Assembly (NCBI RefSeq): GCF_964204645.1
Contig: NC_134026.1
Location: 11,679,950 to 11,743,949 of the forward strand
Source: Tubulanus polymorphus
Taxonomy: Eukaryota; Animalia; Nemertea
Direction: 5' to 3'
Length of the DNA: 64,000 nucleotides
Shown: positions 2,811-35,099 of the stretch, piece after piece
Numbering within the stretch: position 1 is the stretch's first letter
Layout: each line of letters starts with the position of its first letter
Notes under the pieces: generated by a model
Database searches by the model: none
Told to the model about the DNA's origin: nothing
The model's input: the letters and a program-made list of their open reading frames with translations, nothing else
Position numbers and translations under genes: made by a program

Positions 2811-4079
2811 ATGAATGTTCAAGGAGTTGTTACGACGACACCAATATCACCTTCGGCTTCTTCGTCGAGTGAGGATTCACACGTTGTGACCTTCAGGCCA
2901 CAACCTAGTGCCTTCGTAACAGAATCCTTGCCTATCCCGCCTCATACTTTCCCTGGCTCTGGCCGCTACTCTCATACTCTTGTCGAGCCATATATGGAAC
3001 CTACTCCTAGATTCCCAGTACAGTCAACTCCTGCTGTTACCTGTACTTGTTCAGCGAACCCAGGCTTATCCAGGCCACATACCAGTTTTTCTTCTCCCGT
3101 TCCCCCCTTTCCCCCAACCCCGCCTATAACTGCAGCGCTAGCTAGTTCGCACCAAGGCACTTTGAATTCTTTGATTCATTTTCCTAGACCAGCACTCCAT
3201 CCACCCAAACTACAGAAATTTAATGGTAAGGCTTCGAGTGATTTCGGTAGGTTCGTTCGGGATTTTGAGGGTCTTGCTGCTTTAAATGGTTGGTCTGAGG
3301 ATGTTAAGGCCGCGGCTCTTCCGGCGTATTTGACGGACGTAGCAAGGGACCATTATGACGATGTAATTTCGACTTATCAAGGTCCAGGTTCAGCTACGTA
3401 CTCATTTATCAAGGAGGGGCTGCAGGCGAAGTTAGACCCAAAGGAACTCTACTGGGTGCAAGAACAGGCGTTACTTGGCCGTAAACAGGGACCGAATGAG
3501 CCGGTGAAATCATACTCGGAGGAACTCACCTCTAAATTTGCGAAATTGAAAACACCTCCTCAGACGCGATTGCAAGTCTTTTTGTTAGGGTTACGAACGG
3601 ATCTAAAGAAATTTGTTTTGACTCAACAACCTCGGTCAGTTGATGAGGCTGTTAATCAGGCCCTTACGGCAGAGATTATTACGCAGCTAGATCCTCCTGC
3701 AACACACTCAGTTGCCGCCCTTAAAGGCCAGGAGCAGGATAAAATGGAATTGTTGATTAACGAAATAAAATCTCTACGAGCTGACCTCACTTCTCAATCA
3801 AATTTCCAAGCAAACAATAGGCCGGCATCAGAAATTCCTTACTGTAATTACTGTCAGAGATCAGGTCATTCTGAGCGTACTTGTGATCGCAGGTACAATT
3901 CAAGAGGTCAGCAGTCTAGTTATCGGGGTCAAGGGTTGCGTAGGCAAAATTATTCGAGGAATAATTACCGTCCGTTTAATTCTGATAACCCGACAAACAA
4001 TCGAAACTATACACATAGGGGTAATTACGACAGGCAGCAGTTTCCCAACTCTACCTATCACACGAATCAGGGAAATTAG
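2811..4079 (+). CDS. gag: Gag (capsid domain plus CCHC zinc knuckle)
   Basis: KFNGK..DFGRFVRDFE retrotransposon capsid motif; CNYCQRSGHSERTC knuckle; first ATG at 2811 (the ORF track starts at a TTG in the PBS). Confidence 0.92.
   Translation: MNVQGVVTTTPISPSASSSSEDSHVVTFRPQPSAFVTESLPIPPHTFPGSGRYSHTLVEPYMEPTPRFPVQSTPAVTCTCSANPGLSRPHTSFSSPVPPFPPTPPITAALASSHQGTLNSLIHFPRPALHPPKLQKFNGKASSDFGRFVRDFEGLAALNGWSEDVKAAALPAYLTDVARDHYDDVISTYQGPGSATYSFIKEGLQAKLDPKELYWVQEQALLGRKQGPNEPVKSYSEELTSKFAKLKTPPQTRLQVFLLGLRTDLKKFVLTQQPRSVDEAVNQALTAEIITQLDPPATHSVAALKGQEQDKMELLINEIKSLRADLTSQSNFQANNRPASEIPYCNYCQRSGHSERTCDRRYNSRGQQSSYRGQGLRRQNYSRNNYRPFNSDNPTNNRNYTHRGNYDRQQFPNSTYHTNQGN
4070..4076 (+). promoter_or_regulatory. 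-1 ribosomal frameshift site joining gag and pol
   Basis: Slippery heptamer G GGA AAT just before the gag TAG; the -1 frame is open from here into pol. Confidence 0.75.
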
Positions 4080-4096
4080 GCACGGCTTGTATCAAC

Positions 4097-8500: not shown

Positions 8501-8535
8501 TCTTATCGTGTCGTTTTCCATCTATTTTTCAGACA

Positions 8536-11500: not shown

Positions 11501-11561
11501 TACTTATCTATATCTTTCATTCACGGATGGTAAAATGATTGCACTTCCGACACTTGATTAA
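8536..11561 (+). pseudogene. env: Env (class I, baculovirus F/errantivirus-like fusion glycoprotein), disrupted
   Basis: Signal peptide MMIYPIFFILMG after splice acceptor TTTTTCAG (8532); furin site and fusion peptide RSKR|GLLNFVGSISKSLFG; Cys-rich ectodomain; TM segments. Lesions: 1-bp frameshift near 8950, in-frame TAG 10776-10778, 534-bp tandem duplication. Confidence 0.85.
9141..10208 (+). repeat. In-frame 534-bp tandem duplication within env
   Basis: 9141-9674 repeated at 9675-10208; three substitutions seen. Confidence 0.95.
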
Positions 11562-17207: not shown

Positions 17208-18380
17208 AGGCGAATTCCAACCAAGATGAAGAATCCCTGTAGTGGTAGTTCAAGAGGAGGTGTTATCGAGTCGGCCCTGGGGCCGGGTTCAGATATTGGG
17301 ATCTGTCTATCGTCACTGACATTTCCGCTTCAGACTCAAGCCTTTTATTTATTTAATTTCATAGTTGTACCTCTCACCCCTCTCTCCCCCTAGATGTTCT
17401 TTCATAGCGTGAGTTAACCACATTTCGTACGAAATATTAGTTGAACGTGATTAGGCTGACGAGCCGTCATTTAGTGAGATATTGTGACCTTATCCTAGGG
17501 GTCTACTAGTAATACGAGTATTAAGAGTATTACGAGTATAAAAAGTATTACTATGAATGAGCACTACGAGTAGCGAGCAACATTCCATTTATAAATTTTG
17601 CGTTGTTGAGGCAATAAACATGTCTAACGTTACGTTTTACGAATAACGGTCTTATGTCTTTATTGAGTGGATTTCTGAGTCCGAGTCAGTTCAACCAGTT
17701 TCGGGAACAACTCTGGAACCGATAAGGACGCGCTACCCAGAACGAAGGAGTCCGAGTTGTTGTTGGTCGCCTTCAGGTTAAGGACGATTGGACTCGAAGA
17801 CCCACCTAGAATCGATATGAGGCACAACGTGTAGAGGGGATCCCCGACGAAGTTATTTGGCCCGACCCGTGCGTTAGCGAGGCCAAGCTGTAGACATCCT
17901 CGCTTGCTAGGGGTCCGGTATCACTCCCGAACTCGCTTCCACCAGCCCCCTGGCCTCACGAAGCGTGATTTCATTACTGGCGCTGTTGCGCGTGACGTCA
18001 TATATCGATTTGCGAAATACTTCCTTGTTCGGTAAAACGTTCGCTGATTGATCAATTTAACGGGAAAACCAACATAAGTCTACTGACGGTTTGTTACAAG
18101 CGCTGTGATTGGTACGACCGGATTCTGGTCGGCTAGTAACGACTCCAACGACTCGTGGGGTCAAGGGGTTCGGGGGAACAGCTTTAGCGTAGTAGTCAGC
18201 CAGCCAACCTTAAAAAACTATCCTAAAATTCGACGATCACGGCATTTTTTGTTACAGCTTGGCATCCGGGCTCATTTGATAGCAGAGTATGTGGGAGTAA
18301 TTGGGAAAGTAGGCTTTCAGGCCAGAGTACGAGAGTACTAGACACCACTCATCACCACAAGTAATTTTTTTTCCTTATAA

Positions 18381-18707
18381 ATGGGAGATAGAAAAGCATT
18401 CTTAGCAACAATAAATAACAGAATAAAACCAGCAAAAAAACAATTTGAAATAAAAAAGTTAGTTGATGTTACAAAAGAAATTGAACATAAAATATTGAAA
18501 TTAGAAAAGATAAAAACTAAATATGGAGAGAAAGTATCAGCTAATTTAAGCTACTGTAATGTTAGTACATCGCGAGAATTTAAAGTGTTTTTACCCGATA
18601 AATGGGTTTCATTGAGTACGGAGGAATTGAAAGATTTAGTAGGATTTAAAATAATATATCATGGGAAAAATGAAGACGGTCATCATGATTTAGAAATTGT
18701 TGATTGA
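18381..18707 (+). CDS. Hypothetical protein (starts inside the left TIR)
   Basis: 108-aa ORF preceded by the element's TAATTTTTTTT..ATAAATG motif. Confidence 0.7.
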   Translation: MGDRKAFLATINNRIKPAKKQFEIKKLVDVTKEIEHKILKLEKIKTKYGEKVSANLSYCNVSTSREFKVFLPDKWVSLSTEELKDLVGFKIIYHGKNEDGHHDLEIVD

Positions 18708-18713
18708 ATAAAA

Positions 18714-18748
18714 AATAAAAATAATGAATATCTAGAATCCAAAATGAC
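18714..18748. terminator. 35-bp repeat, putative 3'-end/termination signal (copy 1)
   Basis: 34/35 identical to 19593-19627; lies just downstream of the + strand ORF. Confidence 0.35.
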
Positions 18749-19050
18749 CTTAGTCGTTTTATAAACAACTACAATCATACAGTACATCTGTTACATGTTA
18801 TTATAAGAGAGTGCTTCATTTGAATATTGATCAATCAAACAGGTGTTGCACAACGTTGTTGTTATATAATAAGCACGCAGTACATACAACACACACAAGC
18901 CAGTTAGCTGGTATTGAATTACTACGTTTTCATTAGTTGCTGAAAACGAGGTTTATTTAAATTAGCTCAGCCGTGACAACAGGAGGATAGTCATCATTCT
19001 ATCGTGATTAAAAGGAATATTTCAATGTTTTTACGGTAAGTTTTAGCAAA

Positions 19051-19336
19051 ACCACCCGACTTGACTCGCAGAGTTTTTAGGGGATAAGCATCCCGTTATT
19101 GAGAGGCGCCACGAGATACCTATCCCCAAGCATTTCTACTTACACCCCTGTGACCCACACCTCACCAATTCTCCTTCAATGGTTGACAGGAAACACATTA
19201 TATTAAAGGCGCCTAATGCATTTCCTATCAACCCCTTACCCCCGAAAGGAGGATCGAAAGTCGAAACTGAAGGAGAACCACGGAGGGTGGACAAAGGTGC
19301 ATTTTCGAAATGCCCCTGCAAGCCAAGCCCGGCGGC
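19051..19336 (-). ncRNA. Putative highly structured viral ncRNA with two GGCGCC loops
   Basis: GC-rich island. Manual pairing on the minus strand gives a 22/23-bp closing helix and perfect 20-bp and 17-bp hairpins, with many G-U pairs that become A-C mismatches on the plus strand. TATATAA lies upstream at 19367-19361. Confidence 0.7.
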
Positions 19337-19592
19337 ACTCCAGTGGTTGAATGAATTACCTTATATACTTAGCTAAAACACCTAAGTAAATGTTGTTGGT
19401 GCTAAAAAAATATGTGAAATTTGAAATTATAAATTATTCCGAATGAAAAGAATGTAAGAATGAAAACTGATAAATGAATTATGTATTTTTAACTTAATTA
19501 TGATATAATTTTTAATCAAATTAGTAATCAATTACTATGTTAATTGATTAACAAATTCAAATTCAAATATTCAAATAAAAACAAAATAGATT

Positions 19593-19627
19593 AATAAAAA
19601 TAATGAATATCTAGAATCCGAAATGAC
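19593..19627. terminator. 35-bp repeat, putative 3'-end/termination signal (copy 2)
   Basis: Lies just downstream of the last gene of the minus-strand block; matches 18714-18748. Confidence 0.35.
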
Positions 19628-19712
19628 TTATCTGGATAATTTAATTGCTCCGCATAGATAGACAAAAGTAGTGAGATATTTAATTATTTTTTTTACTTTT
19701 TTTTCTAAAATA

Positions 19713-20081
19713 TTAATCCATTTTTTTTATTATCAATTTTGGAATTTCAGAAGTATTTTCATTTTTGATAGCAGTTGGTTCAGAATTACTAATATCATGA
19801 ATTTTATTTGATTTCTTATACCAATTACACCCAATCAAAATGAATACAATTACAAATCCAACTGTAAAATATAAATATTTATTAAATATTCTACTATCAG
19901 AAGGAGTAGAAATAACAATATTTTCACCATTTTTATTAACATTTTTATTACTTATTTTTTCTTTTACAGCTTTTTTATATTCTTGTGATTTAATTCCTAA
20001 TTGCCGAGACCATTCAATTTGTTTCTGAGTTCTCGGTTTTTTCTTCACAGTTAATTCCTTCACTTCTTTCACCTCGCTCAT
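19713..20081 (-). CDS. Hypothetical single-pass membrane protein
   Basis: TM segment YLYFTVGFVIVFILIGCNWY; TAAATG start. Confidence 0.75.
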   Translation of the reverse strand: MSEVKEVKELTVKKKPRTQKQIEWSRQLGIKSQEYKKAVKEKISNKNVNKNGENIVISTPSDSRIFNKYLYFTVGFVIVFILIGCNWYKKSNKIHDISNSEPTAIKNENTSEIPKLIIKKMD

Positions 20082-20619
20082 TTATTATAGAAATATTTTT
20101 ACTTTCAATATTTGAAAATGTTATAACCCCAGTTGATAATAATGTCATAAATCCACCTAATTGAAATGATAAATATCCAATCCATTTATTTAATTCAGTC
20201 ATAACTAAATAATCATTTTTTAAATCGGAATATAATCTATTTTCATCTTCAATTGGTAGTATATAATTACATAATTTACTATAACCTTTTACTACATTTT
20301 CTGATATCGCGTCATTAATTCTAGCTGTTCTCGCGGCTTCATAAATCTTAAATAATCTAATAATTTCATCTGATTTCATTGTATCTAATTCATTATAAGT
20401 TAAATTTTTACCGACAAAATTTTTACATTTTCCAGATGCTATTGATATTTCTAATTGATGTTTACAATAAATATAATATTCATAATTATTATTTGTTGTA
20501 ACATTATTTAAAGCACCATCATCTGGAGTTAATTTTGTTTCTGTTATTCCTAAATCATCTAAAGTTTTTTCAATTGGAACATCACCATTTTTAGATTTTA
20601 TTTTCTTTTCACCTACCAT
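20014..20619 (-). CDS. Hypothetical protein with C-terminal hydrophobic segment
   Basis: 201-aa ORF with the conserved upstream motif. Confidence 0.75.
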   Translation of the reverse strand: MVGEKKIKSKNGDVPIEKTLDDLGITETKLTPDDGALNNVTTNNNYEYYIYCKHQLEISIASGKCKNFVGKNLTYNELDTMKSDEIIRLFKIYEAARTARINDAISENVVKGYSKLCNYILPIEDENRLYSDLKNDYLVMTELNKWIGYLSFQLGGFMTLLSTGVITFSNIESKNISIINERGERSEGINCEEKTENSETN

Positions 20620-20651
20620 TTATATAACAAAAAAATTAATTGTGTGATGTT

Positions 20652-20903
20652 GCAACTAGAATTTAACTAGAATGTAACTAGAATTCAACTAGATTAACAA
20701 GCTAGTTGAAATATTGTTGTTTTTATTTATTTCTTGTTAAATCTAGTTGATTTTTTGTTTCAACTATTAACAACTAGAATTCAATTAGAATGTAACTAGA
20801 ATTAAACTAGATTAACAAGCTAGTTAAAATATTGTTAAATCTATTTGATTTTTGTTACAACTACCAATAACTAGAATTCAACTAGATTAACAAACTAGTT
20901 GAA
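20652..20903. repeat. Intergenic array of AACTAGA ~11-bp repeats with inverted CTAGTT copies
   Basis: Blocks of CAACTAGAATT.../AACTAGATTAACAAGCTAGTT repeated about three times. Confidence 0.85.
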
Positions 20904-20904
20904 T

Positions 20905-21513
20905 TTAAATAAATTCATATTTAAATGGGTGTTGTAATCTAAATAGTAATTTTGATCTTTTAATATTTTTCAACTTATCCATATATTCATTATGTAAATC
21001 ATGTGAAATAATATCATTTTCCTCAAGTGCATTTTTCATCGATTTTCTATCTTTATTGTAGAATAAAACTAGAAATCTAATGTTTTCTCTAAAGTCTTTA
21101 ACAATTGAATTATATTTTTGATTTAAAACCCAAGTTGTTATCCCAAAATGTCTACCAGAGAAAGCCAAATAACATAACTCACTTTCCCTAACTTTTGAAT
21201 CATGTAAATTTGCGCAATCATCTATGATAAATAATGTATTTGATCCTTTATAAATATCAATTGCTATTTTTATACAATTATCTAAATTTTCTTTTACTGT
21301 TTTAGGATCTAATATAATAAATTTATTATTCCTAGTAATATTTTTATCATAAGTTTGATTAAATTCATATGTTGGACAAAATAATACTATATTATCAAAA
21401 TAGTTTTCATAAACAGTTTCTAATAAATGTAATATAAAATAAGTTTTTCCACAATTTGTTACACCAGAAATTAACATATTATGAGGCTCAAATATGAATA
21501 ATTCCTTATTCAT
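20905..21513 (-). CDS. A32/FtsK-like DNA-packaging ATPase
   Basis: Walker A GVTNCGKT, Walker B LFIIDD, SGRH arginine motif, VLNQ, FREN. Confidence 0.92.
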   Translation of the reverse strand: MNKELFIFEPHNMLISGVTNCGKTYFILHLLETVYENYFDNIVLFCPTYEFNQTYDKNITRNNKFIILDPKTVKENLDNCIKIAIDIYKGSNTLFIIDDCANLHDSKVRESELCYLAFSGRHFGITTWVLNQKYNSIVKDFRENIRFLVLFYNKDRKSMKNALEENDIISHDLHNEYMDKLKNIKRSKLLFRLQHPFKYEFI

Positions 21514-22641
21514 TTATATATTTTTAATTTTACTTGATAATATCCATTCATTAAATTTATCTGGCCATCCAACCCTATTTACTAAAGAATATTTTTTTCT
21601 TTTAATAGTTTTTGTTTTTAATACTTTTTCAATTTTATATTCTTGTTCTAGATTTTCAGTAGTTAAACTTAATTCTTCTTCGTAAAAGTAGCCATCAACT
21701 TCTTCACCATCTAAATCTTCTAATTTATAGACATATGGTTTTGTTGTTATTACCTTTTTTATTTTATATATTTCCCTAGTAAAATTTCGATCGTATCCTT
21801 TGTCAAATATCTTTTTATACTTAGAAATTCTAACATTTTGACCAACTTTAAATTTAGGTTCACCAAAATCATCTACAAGAAATGCTCCATATAAATTATT
21901 CCAAACAATTTCAGCATTTTCAGGTTTTCTAGCATCAATAGGTTTCATTCCAATAGAAGAATGATAAGAATTATTATATCCTTCTATCAATTTTGGTAAA
22001 ACATCAATCCATTTAAAAGTATTATTTGCTGTAAAATATTTCCACATTCTTGTTCTTAATGTTCTATTAAATCGTTCAACAACTGCTGCTTTTTTATCTG
22101 ATTTTGTTGAAAAATTTTTAATATTATGATTATCTAAGAGTTCATGAACAAGTGAATTATCAAACTCTTTTCCATCATCAAATTGTATTTTTTCTGGTTT
22201 TAGTTTATCATCCGAAAGAAATTTTCTTAAAACATTTGATGTTTGTACAGCATCTTTTCTATAAAGTGGGAAACTCCATACATAACGACTAAAAATATCA
22301 ATTATATTCAATAACCACCAATAATCATCATTATCTTTCTTAACATTTTTCATATCAATTAAATCTCCTTGCCACTGTTGATCTACATAACTTACCATAG
22401 TTTTACGAGTTTTATATTTTCTAACAATTTTTTTATGTGTTGTATATGTTGGTTGTTCTAACATAAATTCATTTATATCTTTATATTTAACTAAATTTTG
22501 TGGGATTATCTTATCTAATTTATCTTGTTTTACTTTACGCCATATATTTTTAGTAGAAGAATAAGCAACCGAACTCTCAGGGTTGTAATATAAATTTCTT
22601 AAATATTGTTCTTTAGTATTAGGAGATTTTTTACCTCCCAT
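21514..22641 (-). CDS. Retroviral-like (rve) integrase with C-terminal chromodomain
   Basis: WQGDLIDM, IDIFSRY, DDGKEF, VERFNRTLR; KFKVGQNVRISK; IEKVLK..GWPDKFNEWI. Confidence 0.95.
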   Translation of the reverse strand: MGGKKSPNTKEQYLRNLYYNPESSVAYSSTKNIWRKVKQDKLDKIIPQNLVKYKDINEFMLEQPTYTTHKKIVRKYKTRKTMVSYVDQQWQGDLIDMKNVKKDNDDYWWLLNIIDIFSRYVWSFPLYRKDAVQTSNVLRKFLSDDKLKPEKIQFDDGKEFDNSLVHELLDNHNIKNFSTKSDKKAAVVERFNRTLRTRMWKYFTANNTFKWIDVLPKLIEGYNNSYHSSIGMKPIDARKPENAEIVWNNLYGAFLVDDFGEPKFKVGQNVRISKYKKIFDKGYDRNFTREIYKIKKVITTKPYVYKLEDLDGEEVDGYFYEEELSLTTENLEQEYKIEKVLKTKTIKRKKYSLVNRVGWPDKFNEWILSSKIKNI

Positions 22642-22671
22642 TTATATACGCTTAATTTTAACTTTATATTT

Positions 22672-23919
22672 CTAATATTGAATACTATCTAATTGTGAAT
22701 TTACAATATTTAATTGTGCGTCAGATAATATATAAATATGCATTTTAAAATTTTTGATTCCTTTATTCTTTTTCATGAATAATTGTATTCCATCTTTAGT
22801 GTTTTGTAGTTTTTTTCCAGAACCATGTAATGAATTATCTTCTGTTGTTCTAAAATCTAACCATAATGCATATTTATTACCGGTATAATAATCAATTTGA
22901 TTAATGTTACAATTTTCAGATGATTTTACTTTTTCATTCATAAAATGTTTTCTAATTTCTGGCCATTGATCAATCATTCTCATTCCTTGACAAAATATTT
23001 TATTTGCTATTCCTTCGATAGTTATTTCTACTTTTGTTATTTCAGGATTATAATAATTATCAACATTTATTGCACCATTAGAATATGTTGCAATAGTAAA
23101 AAATATTAATATACCTTTAATAGATCTTCTAGGAAAGTTAATATTCTCATTAATTATTTCATCATTTGCATTAATAGTTACAGTTTTAAATTTATCAATA
23201 TAATCATATAATAATGAAAATCCTTGATTGTATTGAGTTTGAATTGTGCTAGCAATATTTTCATTAGTTACTGTGTTATATTCTAAACATATATTTGATA
23301 ATTTATAACCCATATCTTTAACAACGCTAGATAATACAATTTCATTTACAGGAGCAAATGTTATCTCAAATATAATATCTTCTTGAATTGCGTATTTATA
23401 TAAAGGTGCATTATTATTTATCAATTCAAAGTCTAATGGAATTTTATATTTGCTTCCATAAATCTTTTTAATCAAATTATCTGTAGCACGAGTTACTACT
23501 GCATTATTGGCTTCAGATCTTAATTTATTATGGTTTTCCGATTGGATGCCTTGAAATATCATATTATTTCTATTTTCTTTAGTTAACCATAAATCTTTAT
23601 AATGCATAAATAAATTATAATCATCTAATGAGAAAACTGTTTCCGGACCAATCTTTATAGTTAATTTTTTAATCAAATATCTTCCAACATTATCAACAAC
23701 ATAATTGTTATCATGGCCAGTTACTTTTATATCGGCTGATAAATAAATACTGTTTGGAACATAAAAAGTATTTTGTGTTAATCGAGGGATTCTAACGTAT
23801 AAAGTTTCATCGGGATTAATATTAGAAGGGTTATGAGTAATTATATGATGTGATCTCTCTGCTTTAATAGCATTAGATATTCTATAATTCTTCGAAGGAC
23901 TTATATAACTCCCACTCAT
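22672..23919 (-). CDS. Putative double-jelly-roll major capsid protein
   Basis: 415 aa, beta-rich, no TM segment; size and position next to integrase and ATPase fit a Polinton MCP; not confirmed by search. Confidence 0.65.
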   Translation of the reverse strand: MSGSYISPSKNYRISNAIKAERSHHIITHNPSNINPDETLYVRIPRLTQNTFYVPNSIYLSADIKVTGHDNNYVVDNVGRYLIKKLTIKIGPETVFSLDDYNLFMHYKDLWLTKENRNNMIFQGIQSENHNKLRSEANNAVVTRATDNLIKKIYGSKYKIPLDFELINNNAPLYKYAIQEDIIFEITFAPVNEIVLSSVVKDMGYKLSNICLEYNTVTNENIASTIQTQYNQGFSLLYDYIDKFKTVTINANDEIINENINFPRRSIKGILIFFTIATYSNGAINVDNYYNPEITKVEITIEGIANKIFCQGMRMIDQWPEIRKHFMNEKVKSSENCNINQIDYYTGNKYALWLDFRTTEDNSLHGSGKKLQNTKDGIQLFMKKNKGIKNFKMHIYILSDAQLNIVNSQLDSIQY

Positions 23920-23953
23920 TTATTTAACAAAAAAATTAATTATTTATTTTTTA

Positions 23954-25405
23954 TCATGGTTTACTTGATATTTTTTTTGATATCATATTCACTAACCCAA
24001 AAATAATAGCACTTACAACAGTGATTAAAAATAAAATAATATGTTCAGCAGCAAAGTTAAGAATATTACCTGCAGATTTCAATATAAAACCAACAATTGA
24101 AGCAATAACTCCTGGCAATGCTGCAGCAGATTTTTTAGATAGTTCCCATAAATATTTTGCTAATTTCTTTAAACCATCTTTAACTTTATCTTGTATAGAA
24201 TTATTTCCTGGAGGTTTATCTGGTTTATTGGGAGTAGGAGTAGGAGTAGATTTCAGTGAATTTGATATAGCTAAACCTATTGTTGTAAATAACATAGTTA
24301 CAGCTGTTAGAATTGAAAGAATTGTTATTCCTTCTAATTTAAATAATAATCTTATTCTATCTTTTAATGATATTTCAGAATTTGGTTTAATCAACAAATC
24401 TTTAAAAATAACTTTTAATCTATTAATATTATAATCATATGATTTTAATAATAATTTAATTTCTTCTTTCTGAAATTCTATGTTATATTCTAAATCATCT
24501 TTTTCTTTTTCTAAACGTAATTCTTTTTGCCTATATTCTATTTCATCAATTACTTGATGATCTAAATCAGACTTTAGTTGTTCTATTTCTTTATTTTTAT
24601 CAGTTAATTCTTTTTCTAAAGTTCTAATTTTAAAATCTCTTATACTTTTATTATGTGCAATTTTATCAGATGCAAGTCTTATACTAATAATTTCTCTAAT
24701 TGCTTTATCAGAAAATATATCTAAATCTTCTAATTCTTGATCTGTTGCATCAAGTAATCCATTCGGTAAAAGTTTTTCAATTGGAACTTTATTTGATCTA
24801 TGTTTACTATTTTTGGAAGTTATATTCTGTTCAGAAGTTGTTTCTGTTTCTGATTTCTTTTTGATTATTTCAAATAATTCATTAATTCTTTGTTTAAATA
24901 CATCTATATTATCATCTATTTCTTTTTGTGTAACATCAGTTATTTCATTACTATTACTTATTATTTTAATTCTATCTGGTTTTAATTTTTCTAAAGTTGA
25001 TTCTGATAATATTTTATTTTTATTATTTTTATAAGTGATATCAATATAATAATCACCTTTCAAACGATAATAACATTTACCATTATCTAAAAATTTTAAT
25101 TGATCTGCTAAAAGTCCAACGTCTTCATCATTTATGTTAAAATTAGATTTTTCAATTAAATCTTCTAATTTAGGTATTTTGTTTAAATTATCTAAATCTT
25201 GTTTTACTAAATCTGGGTCTAAATTTTCAGGATTTAATTGTGATTCAGCATTTTTAATATAATCAGGCATATTTAAATTATTGTTATATTCTGGTTCATT
25301 ACCATCATTAAAACTTGTTTCATCAAAATCAGGTGGTTGTTCATCAGTTATACCAGGTTTATCAAAAGGATCCGTTCCAATATCTTCTACACCTTCTACT
25401 TCCAT
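23954..25405 (-). CDS. Coiled-coil protein with several C-terminal hydrophobic/TM helices
   Basis: Acidic N-terminus, heptad-rich middle, hydrophobic ITILSILTAVTMLFTTIGLAI and IILFLITVVSAIIFGLV. Confidence 0.8.
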   Translation of the reverse strand: MEVEGVEDIGTDPFDKPGITDEQPPDFDETSFNDGNEPEYNNNLNMPDYIKNAESQLNPENLDPDLVKQDLDNLNKIPKLEDLIEKSNFNINDEDVGLLADQLKFLDNGKCYYRLKGDYYIDITYKNNKNKILSESTLEKLKPDRIKIISNSNEITDVTQKEIDDNIDVFKQRINELFEIIKKKSETETTSEQNITSKNSKHRSNKVPIEKLLPNGLLDATDQELEDLDIFSDKAIREIISIRLASDKIAHNKSIRDFKIRTLEKELTDKNKEIEQLKSDLDHQVIDEIEYRQKELRLEKEKDDLEYNIEFQKEEIKLLLKSYDYNINRLKVIFKDLLIKPNSEISLKDRIRLLFKLEGITILSILTAVTMLFTTIGLAISNSLKSTPTPTPNKPDKPPGNNSIQDKVKDGLKKLAKYLWELSKKSAAALPGVIASIVGFILKSAGNILNFAAEHIILFLITVVSAIIFGLVNMISKKISSKP

Positions 25406-25421
25406 TTATATAATAAAAAAA

Positions 25422-26810
25422 TTAAAATTTAAAATATAATATTCCTCCGATTACAATTCCTATACAAGTTATAGCTAATTTAGTATTTTCATGTGATTTA
25501 TTATCATTATCAGTTTTAATTATATCATGTTGAATTTTATCAGTTTTTATATTTTCTAATGTATTGTAATCTTTTATTTTGGAATCATTATTTAATTTAA
25601 TATTCTTAGTTTTAGTTTCTGTTGATTGAATATGTTTTTTATTTTTTTCACCTTCCATTAATTTTGGAGCAGTAATAATCTTTTTATTTATATCATTTAA
25701 CCCAAATGAATTATTTATTGTTGCAGTTTTAATTAGATTATTATAACCAATTATATTTCCCATCTTTAATACTAAATCATTAGAAATAATTAACAGATTA
25801 GGGCCTATACAATAATTAAGTCTTAAATGAGATTTATCTAAATAATTTTGATATCTTATAATGTTTTCTGGAATCGATCTATTTTTATCATTATGAATTG
25901 AATCTTCAAATAAAACTTTAAATTGTTTTTGTGTATCGAATGATGTATTCAAATTTCCAATTATCGGTGATCTTGTTTCAACTTGTGATCCTAGAATACA
26001 AATCAAATAAGTTCTAATAGATTGATTTATTCTTTCTATACCTGATTTAGTAAAACCTTCACTATTTTCTAAAATAAAATAAACCCAACCATTATTGTTT
26101 TCTTGTTTTAAATGATCATAAAATTTCGGTAATTTATTGAAATTTAATGTTTCTAAATCCTTTGTTTCTATTTTACCATAACCTAATTTTTTATTATAGA
26201 TATTATAAAAACTATTAGATGGTATAGGAAGTGCACAATATTCTGCAATCTTTCTAGGGCAAGGAAGTGATCTTATTGTTCCAATTTTTATTCTAAAATC
26301 AGAATTATTTATATCTATATTAAATTCATTGCAAATTTTATAAAACTTTGATAAATTAATATTATTATCTAATTCTTTAAAATATCTAGATCCTGGTAAA
26401 GCGCACTCTAATTCATTTAATATTATTCTGATTTGAAAGTATGTATGAAATCTAAATAAACTTTGAATTAATTTATATTTAGAATTATTCAAATGATCAT
26501 TCCAACTAATTCCACATCCTGTTGTTGCACAATAAACAGCAAAATTTAATTGATTCTGCCAATACTTCATATTAGATTTTAATAACCATTGTTTTTCATC
26601 TTTCAATTTTTTAAAATCAATTAAATATACATGAAATATATTTTCCATCTTTGCATTAAAATTATTAGTTTCAGTAACATAAATATATAAATCAATTAAT
26701 GAATCTAAAACTTCATTTCTATATGTAATATCTTTATTAAAATCTATTGCTGGAATATTATATTTAATTGATTTATTATATTGGAAAGCTTTTGGAAAAC
26801 TATCTGCCAT
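25422..26810 (-). CDS. Hypothetical protein with C-terminal membrane anchor
   Basis: 462-aa ORF ending LAITCIGIVIGGILYFKF; conserved upstream motif. Confidence 0.8.
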   Translation of the reverse strand: MADSFPKAFQYNKSIKYNIPAIDFNKDITYRNEVLDSLIDLYIYVTETNNFNAKMENIFHVYLIDFKKLKDEKQWLLKSNMKYWQNQLNFAVYCATTGCGISWNDHLNNSKYKLIQSLFRFHTYFQIRIILNELECALPGSRYFKELDNNINLSKFYKICNEFNIDINNSDFRIKIGTIRSLPCPRKIAEYCALPIPSNSFYNIYNKKLGYGKIETKDLETLNFNKLPKFYDHLKQENNNGWVYFILENSEGFTKSGIERINQSIRTYLICILGSQVETRSPIIGNLNTSFDTQKQFKVLFEDSIHNDKNRSIPENIIRYQNYLDKSHLRLNYCIGPNLLIISNDLVLKMGNIIGYNNLIKTATINNSFGLNDINKKIITAPKLMEGEKNKKHIQSTETKTKNIKLNNDSKIKDYNTLENIKTDKIQHDIIKTDNDNKSHENTKLAITCIGIVIGGILYFKF

Positions 26811-26826
26811 TTATATAATTAAAAAA

Positions 26827-27261
26827 TTAATAATTTATTAATTCTTTTAATAATTTATCTTGTTCTTCAACTGTTATATGACCATTTAAACTTATTATAT
26901 AATCTAGTGTGTTCTTTAATTTATTAATTTCTTTTATATTAGTTTTAATTTTTTCTTTATTACTTTTTATATTTAATTTTGAACTTATACCAGTTAAAAC
27001 ACTTGAACTTAATCCTAATACACCAATTGATATAGCTAAAGGTGTTAATGGGCTGAATATTGCTAGAAATGTTATTACAGAACTAATTGTAACCGAACCA
27101 CTAATAATAAGATAATATATAATTTTACTTTTTAAATATTTTTTCTTTTTTATCTTTAAGTCACTTTCAAATTCTAATATTTGTTTTTCTAAATATGTTT
27201 TTAATTTAGTTTTATTTATATCATGAGGAATAATATCAATACTATCAACTTTATCTTCCAT
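26827..27261 (-). CDS. Two-TM hairpin protein flanked by coiled coils
   Basis: IIYYLIISGSVTISSVITFLAIF and LAISIGVLGLSSSVL. Confidence 0.8.
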   Translation of the reverse strand: MEDKVDSIDIIPHDINKTKLKTYLEKQILEFESDLKIKKKKYLKSKIIYYLIISGSVTISSVITFLAIFSPLTPLAISIGVLGLSSSVLTGISSKLNIKSNKEKIKTNIKEINKLKNTLDYIISLNGHITVEEQDKLLKELINY

Positions 27262-27280
27262 TTATTTAGAAAAAAAATTA

Positions 27281-27703
27281 CTAATTAGTAAACTTATAAG
27301 CAACAAATATAACAATAACTGTTCCACCTAAAATCCATATTATTTCATATTTCTGTTGTTCTTTACTTGGGGTATAATAATCTGATAATTTAGGTTTGTA
27401 AAGATGTAATTTTTCTTTATTTGTTACCGCGTTATATAAACTCATAGCATCATCAACTGATTGAAAATCTCTATGTGAAATCTTCTGATCATATAATTCT
27501 TTATTGATGTAATCCATATAGTTTTGTCTCTTTTCTCTATATTCTTCTGCAGCTTTATTGTATTTCTCTAACGCTAAGTTATGTCTTCTTTGTTCTCCTA
27601 ATGAACTATTTTTATCAATATGTTTAAATAAATAACCACCACCAGTAAATGCTAAAGCGTTAACAATTGCCGATCCTATAATAGTTATAATTGCAGAAGC
27701 CAT
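27281..27703 (-). CDS. Small protein with N- and C-terminal hydrophobic helices
   Basis: MASAIITIIGSAIVNALAFTGGGYLF...IIWILGGTVIVIFVAY. Confidence 0.8.
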   Translation of the reverse strand: MASAIITIIGSAIVNALAFTGGGYLFKHIDKNSSLGEQRRHNLALEKYNKAAEEYREKRQNYMDYINKELYDQKISHRDFQSVDDAMSLYNAVTNKEKLHLYKPKLSDYYTPSKEQQKYEIIWILGGTVIVIFVAYKFTN

Positions 27704-27727
27704 TTATTTAGCAAAAAAATTATGCAT

Positions 27728-27949
27728 TTATATGGGAGGAATATATTTTTGTTTTTCCAAATAATCAATTGTTAAATTAGATAAAGTAACTGCTAATGTT
27801 AACTTTAAAATATCATTTATATCAAATCTATCAACATTAACACTTCCCATTTTGAATACTTTTTTTAATACCATTGAATAACCAACAGTTCCAACTGATA
27901 GTAAGGCGCCATTATATAATCCAGTTATTATCCACTTATTATCACTCAT
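27728..27949 (-). CDS. Small hydrophobic protein
   Basis: 73-aa ORF with the conserved upstream motif. Confidence 0.7.
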   Translation of the reverse strand: MSDNKWIITGLYNGALLSVGTVGYSMVLKKVFKMGSVNVDRFDINDILKLTLAVTLSNLTIDYLEKQKYIPPI

Positions 27950-28133
27950 TTATTAATCAAAAAAATTACTATCATCAAAATATTTAGTTAACTTAGTGAT
28001 GATTATTTCAACATTTATTTCATTACTAGTTTCATTTGTATATATTTCAATTATTATTTTTTTGATATCATCGATGATAAAATCTTCATCTAATTCATAA
28101 AATCTTAAAGATTCTCTAATTAAATTAGTAATC

Positions 28134-28245
28134 TTATATAATAAAAAAATTAAAATTTAAAATATAATATTCCTCCGATTACAATTCCTATACAAGTTAT
28201 AGCTAATTTAGTATTTTCATGTGATTTATTATCATTATCAGTTTT
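28134..28245. repeat. 112-bp ectopic copy of 25406-25517
   Basis: Exact match by eye; sits where the polB/intein reading frame is cut off. Confidence 0.9.
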
Positions 28246-31200
28246 CTTCCAATGTTTCAGGTTCTATATTATAAATATTATCAATTATTTCATCAAATGA
28301 CATATGATTCATTCTTGGGTAAAATCTTTTATGTAATAATTCATCTCCAATTTTTATATCAGTTGGTTTTATTTCATCGCCATTTTGTTTAATTAAACTA
28401 TGATCTTCTGTAACATCTACAAATCCTAATTTAGTTCTAACTCTATAGATTTTCTTATTCGTTTTATGTCTAATAATATTATTTAATTTTTTCCATCCAT
28501 TTCTTGTCCAAACATCTATTAATCCATTTATTTGTATTAATTCTTTTTCACCATATGAAATATAAGATTTATTTTGATTAGGAATTATTTCTGAAATTCT
28601 TCTAATTAATATTTGGTTATTGTATTTTAATAATATTGGGGTGTCAGCTGTTACAGAATCAAAATATAATATTTCTATATGTTTTTCTCCAAAAAGTGGT
28701 TGTAAAACATTATAATAAAAATCATACATTAATAATTTTGATACTTCTAAAACAGTTGAACCAATAAATATAGGTTTATTAAATTTCATTGACGTTCTTT
28801 TTAATTTAACTGCTGTTAAATAATCTTCAAATCTTTTATTTCCTAAATGTCTAGGACTTGATTGTAAATGTCTTAATCTTTCAGAATTATTTACTAATTC
28901 AATATCATTTCTATTTCTAATATTTTCACATGTTTTACCATAAAAACTATTATTCATTAATTTGAAGAAATCTTTTTCAAAATCTGTTTTTGATATGGTT
29001 CTCTGTTGAGTATTGAAATCTATATATTTTTCTAACCACTTCGATTGATTAAATTCAATATATCTATGTACTTTCTTTAATTTCATTCCTTGTTTTAGAT
29101 AAAATTTTAACATTCTATAATGAACAATATAATTGTATTTATTATTTTGAGTAAGTATTAATTTTTCCGTAAAAACATGATCTTTCGGTTTTACTTTCTT
29201 CTGGTATTCACTTAAATAACTATCATCTACGGCTAAATGTTCTGGGCAATATGGCAAGTTTCTAGATTTAAATTTAATATGTTCAGGATATTCTAAATCA
29301 ACTACAAAGAAATAACCAATTGGTGCTTCATCTTTTAAACTCGTAATTGCGCTTTCCCAATCAGTTTTATCATCATTTTCAACTTCTGTTAATATAAAAT
29401 TTTTATATGGTTGAGGTTGCATCATTGCCCAACCATATAAATTATTGGCGTCAATATATAATAATTTATATTCATCATTTGCTTTAAAATACCTATCTCC
29501 CATAACACCACTAATTCCACCTCTAATTGATTTTTCAAATAATAAAACCATATCTGGTTCTTTTAATAAATCTAATTCTACATTTGTATATTTTAAACCA
29601 CATTGCCAGGTTAAACCAGGACTTGAATAACAATAACAAGGATCAACATTAAAATGGTTTAGATTAACTTCTCTAAACTTTTCAAATATATCTGCCAATA
29701 TCATAACATCTGATTTTAAATATAAATCAACTAATTCACCATGATTTTTCATATTAAAATGGTTCCAAATATTTAATGTTCTATTAAAAACTTCGTCTTT
29801 CACATACTCCTCTTTTAATTGATCATAAAATTGATCTTTTAATAATTCTGTTACATTAAAATCATCATGTGTTTTATAAAATTAATAAGGAATTGCGCCT
29901 TTATATCTCAATAATTTAAAATCTTGTACATTTGGATAATAATATCGAGTTATAATAAAATCATTATCAACTAATGATTTTGATAAATTATCTAATGAAC
30001 TTGCTAGAAATCTATAAGAATCTAAAAATCTAATGCAACCAAATTGAAATGAAATATAATTTTCAGATGTTTTAGCTAATAGTTTAAAATCATATTTTCT
30101 TACATTTGCTTCATTCATAGCATTATATTCTTCTATTTCTTGATTAATTGCACCCAATTTTCCCGATAATTGTTTTATAAATAGATGGGTATCATATCCT
30201 GATAAATTATGAAATAATATTGGTACGAAATTTACTTTTTTAGCTTGTAAATTGCAATCTTCATGAGCAGCTCCACGATATTTTGAATTTAAATGATCAT
30301 GATCTCTAACTTTTTTATCAAATGAATAAAAACGTTTTTCACAGTAACAACAATGAGTTGCATAATTAAAATCAATTTCATCTTCTTTTGTCATAACTAT
30401 TCTTTTATTTTTGTTTAATAATTTTGTAAAATCACTTTCTAATTCAATCATTTTATCACAAAAATCATTAACTACATTTTCACCTCTAAAAGAAATATAT
30501 TGACTTTCATATAATTCGAGATAATTTGATTTTATATAAATTCCATAAGCAGCAGCTCTTTGATGAACTTTTTTAATTGTATTTATAATTGGTGGGTCTT
30601 GTATTGTGTCTTCATTTAATTCATTTCCTTTATCCATTGATTTTAATAATTGCTTTTTGTTATATATTTCTTTTCTATCTTGATCAGTTAATTCTTTATT
30701 CAACGATTCAAAATCCCCATAAATTACAAATGGAACAATATTTTTAAATTTATGATTAGTAAATTTCAATTTATAATCTTTTTCTGTTGGCATTATTAAT
30801 TTACAAAAATCTTTATTATCACATAATTCTTTATGTTTTAATAATGTATTCTCAGTCATAAATTTAGATAAACATTTTCTACATAGATAAATTTTATTAT
30901 GATGATCACTTTCTGTTCTAAAGAATAAATCAATTTGTTTTAACCACATATAATGTTCATTTTCATCTTTTTTGTAATATAACAAATCTATAGCATTTTC
31001 ATCATCATAATATTCTGTTAAATATAAAGCTTCCAATGTATAATCTTTAATATTTTCACCTTTTGTCTTTGGTAATTGCATTAATTCAAATATATTTATT
31101 TTTAAATTATTAACTTTTTCTATTTTAGGAATCATTTTTATAGTTACTGGATATTGATCAATTTTATATAATGTTTCATATTTCCGGTAATCTGTTATTC

Positions 31201-32200
31201 TATAAACATGTTCTTCTGTTGGATGTAAGCAACTAATAATTGACCATAGAAAACATTTATTATCTTCATTTTGAATATTTATTACTGCTTTTGTTATAAA
31301 TGGTAATTTGATATAACTTGATGCTTTCATATCTTTTTCTGTTATAAAGTTTGAATCATTTTTAAACATTTTATTACTTTTTGATGTTTTATTTCTTTTT
31401 GTATTATAAACATTTAAATCTAAATATATAATTTCATTCAATGTTAAACCAGAACCCTCAAAATATCTTTCTTCAATATGACGTTTAAATTCATTTAATA
31501 TTTTTTCTAACTTCTCTTTTATTTGTGTTTTTGAAATTATTTCTTCAGAGAGTGTTTGAATATTATAATCCATTTTTTCTTCTGACTTTATAAAACTTAC
31601 TTTCCCAGAGATACTAATTTTTGGATATTCAACATCTGTTATCAAATCTAGTATTTTTTCTATTATTTCATTAAATTTACTATAATCTTCTATTGTTGTA
31701 CCTTTAAAGAATCTAAATATAATAGCTGCAGGGCCAATTTTACTATGTAATGTTTCTAAAATTTCAATTGTATCTTTTATTTCTAGTGAATCAATATAAT
31801 TTCTAACATTTTCCATGTAAGGTTTATTTGAAATGGATTTTGTTTTTGAAGTTGATTCTTTTACTTGTTGAGGTTTATTATCAAAATATTCTAATCCTAA
31901 AACATTTTTATTTAAATTTTTGTAATGTTTTTGTGATTCGAGATGTCTATTATAATTCCTTTTTACTATAAATTCGTTACAAACTTCACATTTTATTTCA
32001 TCCACATTCATATTTTCTAATCGTTCTTTTCTTTCATTAGAATTTTCTGGAGTTTCAAAATCTATTACATTTTTTATATGATTTGCAGATTTTTCATGTT
32101 TAGATTTATTAGATTTATCAATGTATTTTTTACAATATGGACAATAATATTGATTTTTATTGACATTATTGTTTTCTGGCTGGTGTTCATTCTCCCCCAT
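28238..32200 (-). pseudogene. polB: Protein-primed family B DNA polymerase with one nonsense codon and a truncated C-terminus
   Basis: N-terminal zinc fingers; YGDFES, FHNLSGYD and YLKSDV exonuclease motifs; DHDH..AHEDCN EndoVII-like insert; YIDANNLYG (motif A); KLMNNSFYGK (motif B). The two ORFs are in one frame, separated by TAA at 29882-29884. Confidence 0.93.
28246..28657 (-). other. Intein N-terminal splicing region inserted in PolB motif C
   Basis: Motif C Y-F-D is followed by SVTADTPILLK (block A), VWTRNGWKK, VDVTEDHSL (block B TxxH) and IKIGDEL instead of TDS. Confidence 0.88.
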
Positions 32201-35099
32201 TTATTAGGAAAAAAAATTACTTGTGGTGATGAGTAAAAAAAAAAAAATTACTTGTGGTGATGAGTGGTGTCTAGTACTCTCGTACTCTGGCCTGAAAGCC
32301 TACTTTCCCAATTACTTGTGGGCTATCATGTGTGGTGGATGCCTTTTACAATTTTTTCGTTTTTTGGCCTACAGGGGGCGTTAAAGTCAGACATTTTGAA
32401 ATTAAAACATCTTCATTTTCATTCGTCAAGGAAATACACTTTAAACTACTTTTGCTAAATAATTCGAATATCTCATCTTAGGTTTGGAGTAATTTTACAA
32501 TCTAAACCTTTTCTGAGTTGGGGGATTGCAGTGCATATAGCGCAACGTTAATTTTATGCATACATTCATTTGTTACCTAGTTACAGCAGCAACAATCGTG
32601 TAATATTCACTTGAAAATAGCAATTTCATATGAAATATTCATTTTAAAGGTTATTAGCTCAAATAGTGATGTTGTTAATGTTTTTTTGTTGATTATTTTG
32701 ATATTTCTTTAAACTTACTTATAACTCGTATGTACTTGGTCAATATCGGGATTAACTGTTTATTGGTTTCTATGGTAACAGCAATTCAAATCTGCGTTCT
32801 TCATCCGTCAGGTACCGGTATTTTGGGCGTTGGGTCTTTCGTGACAGACAGACAATAGTTTCTAAATCATAAGCGAAATGACGCAGTTGAGGCGGTAGGG
32901 TTTGAATAATTTGCTCGATCTCTAGAAAACCTTTAATTATACAGCGTAAGCTGCTTGCACTAATTCCTTTGTCTTTTTGTCTAAAGTCATGTTAAATTTG
33001 TGAGGCCCAGTAAAGTTCCAGGTTCTTCACTGACTGATAGTCGGTGGACCTGTGTTTAAATCTGCAGACTTAGGCCTGTACATGGGTTACCATTGTTGCA
33101 ATTCAATTGTTAGCAAGACGTAGTAATAAGCGGCCCAATACATGGCCGAAGACTTTAGGCAAGTTTGAGAACATTTGGAATGTCACGAAAGACCCAACGC
33201 CCAAAATACCGGTAGGCCTCTGACGGCGGATGAAGAACGCAGATTTGAATTGCTGTTACCATAGAAACCAATAAACAGTTAATCCCGATATTGACCAAGT
33301 ACATACGAGTTATAAGTAAGTTTAAAGAAATATCAAAATGATCAACAAAAAACATTAACAACATCACTATTTGAGCTAATAACCTTTAAAATGAATATTT
33401 CATATGAAATTGCTATTTTCAAGTGAATATTACACGATTGTTGCTGCTGTAACTAGGTAACAAATGAATGTATGCATAAAATTAACGTTGCGCTATATGC
33501 ACTGCAATCCCCCAACTCAGAAAAGGTTTAGATTGTAAAATTACTCCAAACCTAAGATGAGATATTCGAATTATTTAGCAAAAGTAGTTTAAAGTGTATT
33601 TCCTTGACGAATGAAAATGAAGATGTTTTAATTTCAAAATGTCTGACTTTAACGCCCCCTGTAGGCCAAAAAACGAAAAAATTGTAAAAGGCATCCACCA
33701 CACATGATAGCCCACATACTCTGCTATCAAATGAGCCCGGATGCCAAGCTGTAACAAAAAATGCCGTGATCGTCGAATTTTCCATGATTGGCTGGCTGAC
33801 TATAGTGGGTTCGAATCCCTTGACGGGTGAAGATGAGCTGTAGACCAGTACTGAGCGGCGGTATATTATCTGGCGCAGCCGTTGTGAGAAAATCTGGCCC
33901 GGAGAGCCAGTCGGTTACTGTGCCCGGCCTATTCGGTTACATTAGTACCGCCAGCGTTACTGGCGATTGTTAAAGTAGGCAGTGGACTTGTTGTTTACTA
34001 CATTTACATTACCCACTTAACTTAGAGCAACGCGTGACATCACGTATTATGACCTAGATTTTACGCTTACGAACTAGACTTTAGGATCTAACTTCAACAG
34101 CGGAATGTTCGATATCAATAAAGGTAATTTGTTTTTGAATTTGTTGTCTTTGACCCAAAGATCGCGGCTCGAAAAAATAAAGTGTGAATTGAATTGGTGG
34201 TGTTTATGCAGGGAAAAGCCAATTATCCGAGGCTGAGGCTGTGCATTGCAGATGTAAGTATAATCAACGAATTACAGCAAGGTTTGGTGCCCTCATTCAA
34301 AAATCGGGCACGGCAAGAACCACAGGGACTTATCACAATTGATATAGTTAGTTACCTAATCGTTGGTGGTTAAGTTTTTTAATCGGATCGGATGGGCTTA
34401 TACCACCAACGTTTACTTTAGGGATGACAAGGAAGGGCCAAAGGCAAAACACGGTTGAAAAAAGTAACACTTCAAAAATATACTTTCTATTCACTTCAGT
34501 CCACAATTAATGGCTTAAATCACAAACTAACACAGGTACCTTTCGAAGTAATCCAATTTGGAAGTTGCCGCGCATGCGCAGTAGTTTCCGCCGCATCATT
34601 ACGGTCACAGGCAAAAGCGAAGCCGTTTCATCCCTTGTTATTTTAATATAGTAAGGTGTCGCGCCCGCTGATACTATTACTGATCCTTAACAGCCAATTG
34701 TTTATCGAAACTCTATAGTGGATAAATAAACAACATCAACAAGAGGTATTTCTGTGATATTTTGAATTTATTTGCAGTTTAAATTTAGCACCATTCTCGC
34801 GAGATTATCAACAACCCGGAAGTAAAATCCAAGCCAGTTTACAAGCCCCTGTGCTTTCATACCCCCTCCCAAAATTTTTTATTTCTGTTTATTATTAATC
34901 AGGGAGGTCTGTAGTCAGTAACCTATGCATGATAGACTATGTGACCTATAAGGATTTATATGCCTAAAACTTTCAAGACGAAACGACAATTTTTTTTTTG
35001 GATAGTTTTCCAACTTATATTTCAAATCTTCGTGTTTTCCACAATAAATGATGAAAAATAAATTCTGATTGAAGAAAATGTGAATAAGTGTTGATTTCT

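Follow-up and report, generated by a model that had tools for sequence, protein, structure and literature searches.

A predicted minus-strand RNA with twin palindromic loops on a repeat-flanked insert of a Polinton, a possible VA-like decoy

Adenoviruses, whose ancestors were presumably Polinton-like, deploy VA RNAs made by RNA polymerase III (Pol III) against host defences, and the HIV-1 DIS presents a GC-rich palindromic kissing loop. The VA RNAs are described as Pol III products with a four-U end, in which the terminal stem serves both as an Exportin-5 binding site and as a Dicer substrate (PMC7589676, PMC4378190). Foamy viruses produce dumbbell pri-miRNAs by Pol III, each with two hairpins (PMC7693620), and in the ornate bacterial RNAs OLE, ROOL and GOLLD symmetric intermolecular kissing loops build RNA-only multimers (bioRxiv 10.1101/2024.12.08.627333). 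Polinton-like viruses carry non-coding RNA genes of their own, including those for tRNA, snRNA, snoRNA, a group I intron and rRNA (PMC12220804), and mosaicism has been described in these viruses (bioRxiv 10.64898/2026.10.13.758929). Our survey of the literature on non-coding RNA in Polintons and adintoviruses found no dedicated RNA of a family of its own in an animal Polinton. The available portions of PMC6431247 and PMC12220804 describe no such RNA, and tables S11 and S12 of the latter may list comparable cases.

The locus considered here lies on the minus strand of the window (the whole stretch of 64,000 nucleotides that was analysed, to which all positions refer). Its setting, a small DNA virus of the double jelly-roll capsid lineage, recalls that of adenovirus VA RNA I/II (and of EBV EBER1/2). 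The predicted RNA is likewise GC-rich and highly paired, with a terminal stem of ~22 bp joining its ends in the predicted structure and a four-U end (T4 at 19051-19048, with none inside the body), as in the VA RNAs (PMC7589676, PMC4378190). In contrast to these, it is ~290 rather than ~160 nt long, has an upstream TATA element but no clear internal A and B boxes, carries twin paralogous hairpins with palindromic loops, and appears to have arrived as a repeat-flanked cassette. The words GGGU and ACCC, which form a pair of tetranucleotides in the central domain of VA RNAs, both occur, but are not paired in the corresponding register of the minimum free energy (MFE) structure, and the Rfam VA model gives no match over the RNA. 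Judged by its sequence, the RNA thus fails membership of the VA family, having no Rfam match, unclear boxes and twice the length.

The foamy-virus dumbbells and the Pol III pre-miRNAs of BLV share with the locus a Pol III-type unit and, in the dumbbells, two hairpins (PMC7693620). The hairpins of the Polinton RNA, however, are short (stems of 20 and 17 bp, ~53 nt apart), lie inside a larger closed multibranch fold, and have kept their loops rather than their arms best. The likeness to HIV-1 DIS and to OLE, ROOL and GOLLD consists in a hairpin loop that exposes a GC-rich palindrome of 6 nt; the Polinton RNA differs in being small, in having two such loops and in its eukaryotic setting, and within its 13-14-nt loops the palindrome occupies the 5' edge, followed by a 7-8-nt 3' linker. 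It also resembles the RNAs of polinton-like viruses as non-coding cargo in a Polinton-type genome, but those were matched by Rfam or ARAGORN to known families (PMC12220804), whereas this RNA matches none.

Fold, twin hairpins and ends of the RNA

The predicted parts of the RNA, all on the minus strand, are as follows.

19360..19367, minus: TATA element TATATAAG; its first T is 31 nt upstream of the first paired base (sequence; spacing compared with U6-type promoters)
19051..19336, minus: predicted non-coding RNA body, ~286-290 nt, 109 bp, 20 G-U (folding; +1 placed at 19336-19340)
19314..19336, minus: closing (terminal) helix, 5' strand, partner 19073-19051; 22 bp, one G.G, 6 G-U; mean pair probability 0.99
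19051..19073, minus: closing helix, 3' strand; the T4 run begins, with its first U, on the final base of this strand (fold)
19130..19313, minus: long arm, with helices of 7, 11, 4, 4 and 15 bp up to a four-way junction (fold)
19239..19264, minus: two small hairpins, predicted with less certainty, at the four-way junction (mean pair probability 0.71 and 0.79)
19181..19233, minus: hairpin H1, 20 bp (3 G-U); 13-nt loop 19213-19201, GGCGCCUUUAAUA, GGCGCC first (fold)
19080..19127, minus: hairpin H2, paralogue of H1, 17 bp (3 G-U); 14-nt loop 19110-19097, GGCGCCUCUCAAUA, GGCGCC first (fold and alignment)
19251..19259, minus: B-box-like word with one mismatch (19259); an A-box-like word, also with one mismatch, starts at 19325 (consensus patterns)
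19048..19051, minus: T4 run and candidate Pol III terminator; past 19378, no other T4 precedes it on this strand (sequence)

Folded against shuffled sequences, the minus strand of 19045-19345 reached -158.9 kcal/mol (z -11.98), a stability attained by 0 of 100 shuffles, versus -93.2 kcal/mol (z -4.29) for the plus strand of the RNA region. The minus-strand MFE structure comprises 109 bp in 11 helices, including 20 G-U pairs, while the plus-strand fold has 86 Watson-Crick pairs and 0 G-U; each wobble therefore pairs on one strand only. Were wobbles distributed randomly between strands, a 20:0 split would be expected, by our own arithmetic, at ~1e-6. The mean pair probability was at least 0.96 in 9 of the 11 helices. 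The region has a GC content of 51% against 23-24% for the element, and was the most stable 300-nt window of those scanned across the Polinton. Folded as DNA, the minus strand still exceeded the plus strand (z -6.7 vs -4.3); the bias is smaller, so that energy alone leaves room for a single-stranded DNA. As a control, AT-rich hairpins 3' of the ATPase gene in three sister loci folded equally on both strands. The word UUUCG occurs four times in the RNA, three times in or just before the hairpins at 19264-19239, and four such words were reached in 5 of 5000 shuffles. As modelled, the region is a real, strand-selected fold outside any catalogued family.

These results bear out an initial annotation of this DNA, which had proposed a structured, single-stranded minus-strand RNA inside a Polinton, of no family that it recognised, as a GC-rich island with wobbles on the minus strand only. 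All of the helices that it listed recur in the minus-strand MFE structure, namely the closing helix (19336-19314/19073-19051, with its one G.G mismatch and six G-U pairs), three helices of the long arm, and the perfect hairpins of 20 bp (19233-19181) and 17 bp (19127-19080). It had overlooked the two small hairpins at 19264-19239, the T4 run at 19051-19048 and the 35-nt direct repeats described below. It had described the two hairpins as near-identical loops on stems of differing sequence; the stems are paralogous, with GAUAGG common to both stem bases.

The alignment of H1 with H2 scored 36, compared with 19.4 +/- 3.4 for shuffles, and none of 5000 shuffles reached this score. Among the 17 aligned pairs, eight were the same, six showed two-sided and three one-sided changes, and none was broken, a tally that is biased towards pairing because both hairpins had been chosen as perfect stems; it constitutes the sole covariation evidence to hand. 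The elements fixed between the two are GGCGCCU...AAUA in the loop and GAUAGG at the stem base, such that the loop ends stayed fixed while the stems diverged. Judging from this comparison, H1 and H2 are products of a duplication, with pairing maintained.

Both GGCGCC hexamers are predicted to be unpaired (p 0.91-1.0), like the DIS palindrome, and any loop-loop combination would give a 6-bp GC duplex computed at -14.1 kcal/mol; a cofolded dimer was computed ~13 kcal/mol below two monomers. By chance, some 6-nt palindrome would occur in a 13-nt loop at ~12%, the two paralogous loops counting as one event. The hexamer is identical in both paralogous loops, and the searches described below found no homologue in which to look for a swap to another palindrome. 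Loop-loop kissing is plausible on these energies. In the predicted geometry the arm continues at its end straight into H1, the two forming a stacked rod of ~83 bp and ~23 nm, and H2 emerges from a three-way junction whose linkers measure 0, 2 and 6 nt; by the usual rules for such junctions, it would point back along the terminal stem. The two loops would thus lie near opposite ends of the rod, which favours pairing between molecules over pairing within one, and intramolecular kissing looks unlikely on this geometry. The conserved loop could equally be a protein site. The only other GGCGCC in the element (27905-27910) lies in a 73-aa ORF, and its complementarity to the loops was not above that of controls.

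U6-type Pol III promoters have a TATA element ~30 nt upstream of +1, and such a spacing is present here, though TATA words are common locally. The upstream word, already noted by the initial annotation, is TATATAAG at 19367-19360. The T4 run starts on the last paired base of the closing helix, and the RNA body has seven T3 runs and no T4; internal T4 is absent from 833 of 5000 shuffles as well, making this weak evidence. At local densities of 6.7-9.2 per kb for T4 and 4-6.7 per kb for TATAWAW, the chance of a T4 within 3 nt of the end, or of a TATA within a 9-nt band, is ~2-6% each by post hoc arithmetic. The A- and B-box-like words have no exact match to the consensus, and both occurred with one mismatch in 92 of 1000 shuffles, i.e., at chance level. 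A word near 19404-19385 is, by resemblance, a candidate for the proximal sequence element of such promoters. In contrast, the genes of the Polinton itself use another signature, in which a T-run precedes (T/A)ATAAATG and the latter includes the start codon. Overall, the ends of the fold are laid out like those of a Pol III gene.

Directly after the T4, minus-strand positions 19040-18965 contain a word reminiscent of the snRNA proximal element, and after it box C-like and box D-like words only ~30 nt apart; this segment has neither a folding excess nor an Rfam match. Of the 13 listed ORFs of the element, 12 start at TAAATG, mostly after a T-run, which resembles the late promoters of poxviruses (examples at 20619, 23919, 25405, 26810, 27261, 27703, 27949, 32200 and 18381).

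The carrier Polinton, the insert and related loci

The element that carries the RNA and the segment in which the RNA lies have the following features.

18225..33781, no strand assigned: Polinton/Maverick with terminal inverted repeats (terminal repeats and gene content)
20905-21513: A32-like ATPase (protein-domain match)
21514-22641: rve integrase (protein-domain match)
22672-23919: double jelly-roll major capsid protein, 415 aa (structure model match)
18749..19592, no strand assigned: 844-nt insert containing the RNA (direct repeats and sister comparison)
18714..18748, plus: left 35-nt direct repeat, directly after the stop of a 108-aa ORF (34/35 identical)
19593..19627, plus: right 35-nt direct repeat, continuing into intergenic sequence that sister locus L001 has without a break at 2433-2529 (83%; sequence comparison)

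The terminal inverted repeat at 18225-18372 matches 32240-32316 and 33711-33781. The capsid model (pLDDT 80.6) matches PBCV-1 Vp54 and the mavirus major capsid protein (best E 1e-16), and on these matches the element is a Polinton/Maverick. This copy is damaged: the gene that we take from its motifs to be the polymerase gene is divided between two ORFs and terminates prematurely, and the right terminal repeat is interrupted by a non-coding element of 1.4 kb (32317-33716), whose inverted arms are perfect over 370 nt. The RNA lies between convergent genes, ~380 nt past the stop of the last minus-strand ORF and 1.6 kb from the ATPase gene.

Besides the RNA, the insert comprises an upstream flank of 247 nt with 19% GC and a downstream flank of 300 nt with 33% GC. 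Past the T4, the downstream flank has a CpG observed/expected ratio of 0.96, which is host-like (host 0.94-0.95; element 0.51), and the 5' flank is element-like in its GC content, both in small samples. Terminal inverted repeats were not found at the ends of the insert, nor was a second copy of the insert or the RNA within the 64-kb window. The 3' flank shows no folding excess indicative of a second RNA (z -1.29 and -0.65 for the two strands). An origin as a Helitron or a TIR transposon was considered and rejected, as neither would account for a 35-nt direct repeat. In L001 the segment that begins with the repeat runs uninterrupted over 98 nt at 83% identity, but elsewhere in that element. This 98-nt intergenic segment (19596-19692; L001 2433-2529) is conserved as well as the coding genes, lies 3' of a gene in both elements and is possibly a 3'-end signal.

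A metagenome scan yielded at least 19 related loci, all of them fragments whose missing parts may hold the RNA, and blastn found no match to the RNA in any of those listed. In the five closest of those listed, no 250-nt window exceeded 31% GC, and GGCGCC occurred in one of the 19 listed. The RNA is absent from the five listed loci with ATPases of 75-81% identity, two of which are just 1.3-1.4 kb long, and from the larger fragments compared, L001 (11.5 kb), L003 (6.3 kb) and L005 (7.4 kb). L001, in which the ATPase is 81% identical and the gene order matches along most of the element, carries a gene for a deoxynucleoside kinase (10340-10981, E 2e-31) after the neighbour gene that it shares with the RNA cassette, and in L003 and L005 the sequence continues into other ORFs at that position. 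Accessory cargo in this slot is thus, to judge from the sequences compared, normal in these elements. The initial annotation had suggested sister Polintons as a source of homologues of the RNA, and the listed loci provide none.

What is new here, from sequence comparison, is an RNA in an 844-nt insert with 35-nt repeats, for which a sister Polinton has an uninterrupted site. Together with its absence from the listed relatives, the repeats and that site identify the RNA as acquired cargo on a repeat-flanked cassette, as far as sequences can tell. The near-perfect repeats suggest a late arrival, and an RNA that arrived late would therefore have evolved elsewhere. From one copy, insertion in the virus lineage or after integration may both fit.

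Searches with Rfam gave no gathering-score match in the whole 64-kb window; relaxing the E limit to 5 and to 10 added, for the RNA, only two chance matches to unrelated families. No tRNA and no host snRNA gene were found in the window. The models for 7SK, SRP, RNase P/MRP, vault, Y and telomerase RNA gave no match, the invertebrate coverage of Rfam being incomplete. Core words for SRP, 7SK, P/MRP and Sm are absent from the RNA; the RNA strand has one GAUC and a telomere-template match of at most 6 nt. As regards a guide or antisense role inside the element, the best duplexes were similar to those of shuffled controls. Blastn against phages and against plasmids returned four weak matches each (E 0.07), every one of which fell in the AT-rich 5' flank. 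Translated-frame proxies gave no match for a 65-aa plus frame and three for a 61-aa minus frame, all to unrelated repeat proteins, and neither frame therefore looks gene-like. No relatives based on the ATPase or capsid were found in IMG/VR. Hairpin-motif scans covered 6 + 23 viral loci (IMG/VR) and at least 120 prokaryotic loci (GTDB); among the 155 motif matches listed, in at least 149 loci, no closing stem exceeded 5 bp. The searched collections are poor in animal genomes, which makes the lack of homologues weak evidence of rarity.

Two IMG/VR fragments from these scans, L044 and L027, were rejected as candidates: the 17-bp stems of L044 belong to a 36-nt tandem repeat array (1-530), those of L027 have the same spacing, and the RNA was unmatched in both. 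Such 36-nt repeat arrays with internal palindromes are unrelated to the RNA.

Possible roles of the RNA

Of the three roles offered by the initial annotation (packaging scaffold, immune decoy and ribozyme), the immune decoy appears to be the best. We tentatively favour, at a probability of roughly 0.35, a Pol III-made, VA-RNA-like double-stranded RNA decoy that self-associates through its loops. The RNA is known as a single copy, with its fold and layout predicted from sequence. On this reading the cassette is a TATA-led Pol III gene, a step that we consider probable, with a transcript running from ~19336-19340 to 19051-19048. The terminal stem of 22 bp, ending in a short 3' tail of oligo-U, would present the form in which VA RNA is accepted by Exportin-5 and Dicer, followed by ~60 further bp of near-continuous helix. 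Pairing between molecules through the two GGCGCC loops, for which we see about even odds, would raise avidity. The RNA would occupy the double-stranded RNA or RNAi machinery of the host as a decoy, and would benefit the Polinton beyond being merely carried; PKR is an unlikely target, as the host is likely an invertebrate. A more elaborate form, which we regard as unlikely, is a two-handed rod, in which a duplicated hairpin with a palindromic loop near each end would produce RNA-only rings or filaments, a high-avidity sponge for double-stranded RNA sensors.

If the decoy reading is true, it names a counter-defence for Polintons, and a Pol III decoy carried as exchangeable cargo would illustrate the origin of genes of this kind. 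The rod, if real, would be a eukaryotic-virus counterpart of the self-assembling ROOL and GOLLD RNAs and would have arrived at the VA-RNA strategy independently. Were it instead a captured host gene, an uncatalogued Pol III RNA of invertebrates would come into view for the first time. In either case the RNA is short and readily produced.

Nearly as likely as the decoy is that the RNA is a passenger, either an uncatalogued host Pol III gene or a non-autonomous host mobile unit, which would have inserted into this copy with a duplication of 35 nt and be of no use to the Polinton. The 34/35 direct repeats, the empty site in L001 and a 3' flank that resembles the host in GC and CpG content all accord with a passenger, in a Polinton copy whose right terminal repeat holds a further insertion and whose polymerase gene is broken; the capture of host rRNA genes by polinton-like viruses has been published (PMC12220804). 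Nevertheless, the inclusion of 247 nt upstream and 300 nt past the T4 speaks against a simple Pol III retrocopy, and a mobile unit or host gene sits less well with insert ends lacking terminal inverted repeats, a single copy in the 64-kb window, no match to a known host RNA family and a 5' flank as AT-rich as the element. Considerably less probable is a small-RNA precursor, a Pol III transcript whose hairpins or terminal stem would be cut into miRNA- or siRNA-like guides. Drosha substrates have a stem of ~35 bp, for which the 20- and 17-bp stems are short, and the part best kept is the loop, which is discarded in miRNA processing; no target of an arm or loop within the element stood clearly above its three shuffled controls (12 comparisons). 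The paralogous hairpins do have 13-14-nt loops, with GAUAGG close to the 5' end of each in the manner of a common seed, and foamy viruses provide a precedent in their Pol III double-hairpin pri-miRNAs (PMC7693620).

The location between convergent genes, past the last minus-strand stop, would also suit a cis element, either a 3'-UTR or read-through structure of the minus-strand genes or a single-stranded DNA structure for strand-displacement replication. G.T wobbles are tolerated in DNA as well, and the DNA fold retains z -6.7. Against this stand the TATA and T4 of the RNA itself, exactly at the ends of the fold, the lack of this structure at the equivalent position in the sister elements, and the AT-rich, strand-symmetric character of the DNA-type hairpins found there; we consider a cis element improbable. 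A packaging scaffold that works with the A32-like ATPase, in the manner of phi29 pRNA, could draw on two free, mutually complementary loops per RNA and on the proximity of the ATPase gene. The phi29 pRNA, however, has two different, non-palindromic loops that set ring polarity, and A32/FtsK-like ATPases are not known to need an RNA. Since the packaging ATPase is conserved without the RNA (the relatives with 75-81% identical ATPases, known from fragments, show none) and the cassette is apparently a late insert, we regard this proposal of the initial annotation as very doubtful. Its other proposal, a self-cleaving ribozyme or retrozyme-like unit, is the least credible: a compact, highly paired RNA lies between direct repeats, and the window holds a Penelope-type element, but no Rfam ribozyme family matched at E up to 10, the hammerhead core word is absent from both strands of the insert, and the fold is nearly all Watson-Crick helix with few junction residues.

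Other features of the window

The second polymerase-like ORF (28238-29752, minus) contains an intein N-terminal region (TIGR01445, E 5e-8, residues 367-453), at a location that looks like family-B motif C, and stops at a 112-nt duplicate of 25406-25517. For the polymerase of an animal Polinton, an intein may merit attention. The gap past the ATPase gene (20653-20903) holds short tandem repeats in the window, while the corresponding gaps of the sister loci (L003 3020-3110, L004 915-1000, L005 3553-3640) hold long, strand-symmetric, AT-rich palindromes that are unrelated in sequence. The gap feature is possibly origin-like or terminator-like DNA.

The flanks of the Polinton contain gypsy and Penelope-type elements, with a CpG observed/expected ratio of ~0.95, a value suggestive of an invertebrate host. 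The gypsy-type element at 2811-11561 (plus) has a chromodomain and ORFs matching the baculovirus F protein (envelope-like). In another at 55159-59388 (minus), in a genome without CpG depletion, the first ORF combines a SCAN domain with an integrase ahead of the reverse transcriptase, a domain order that we label Gmr1-like.
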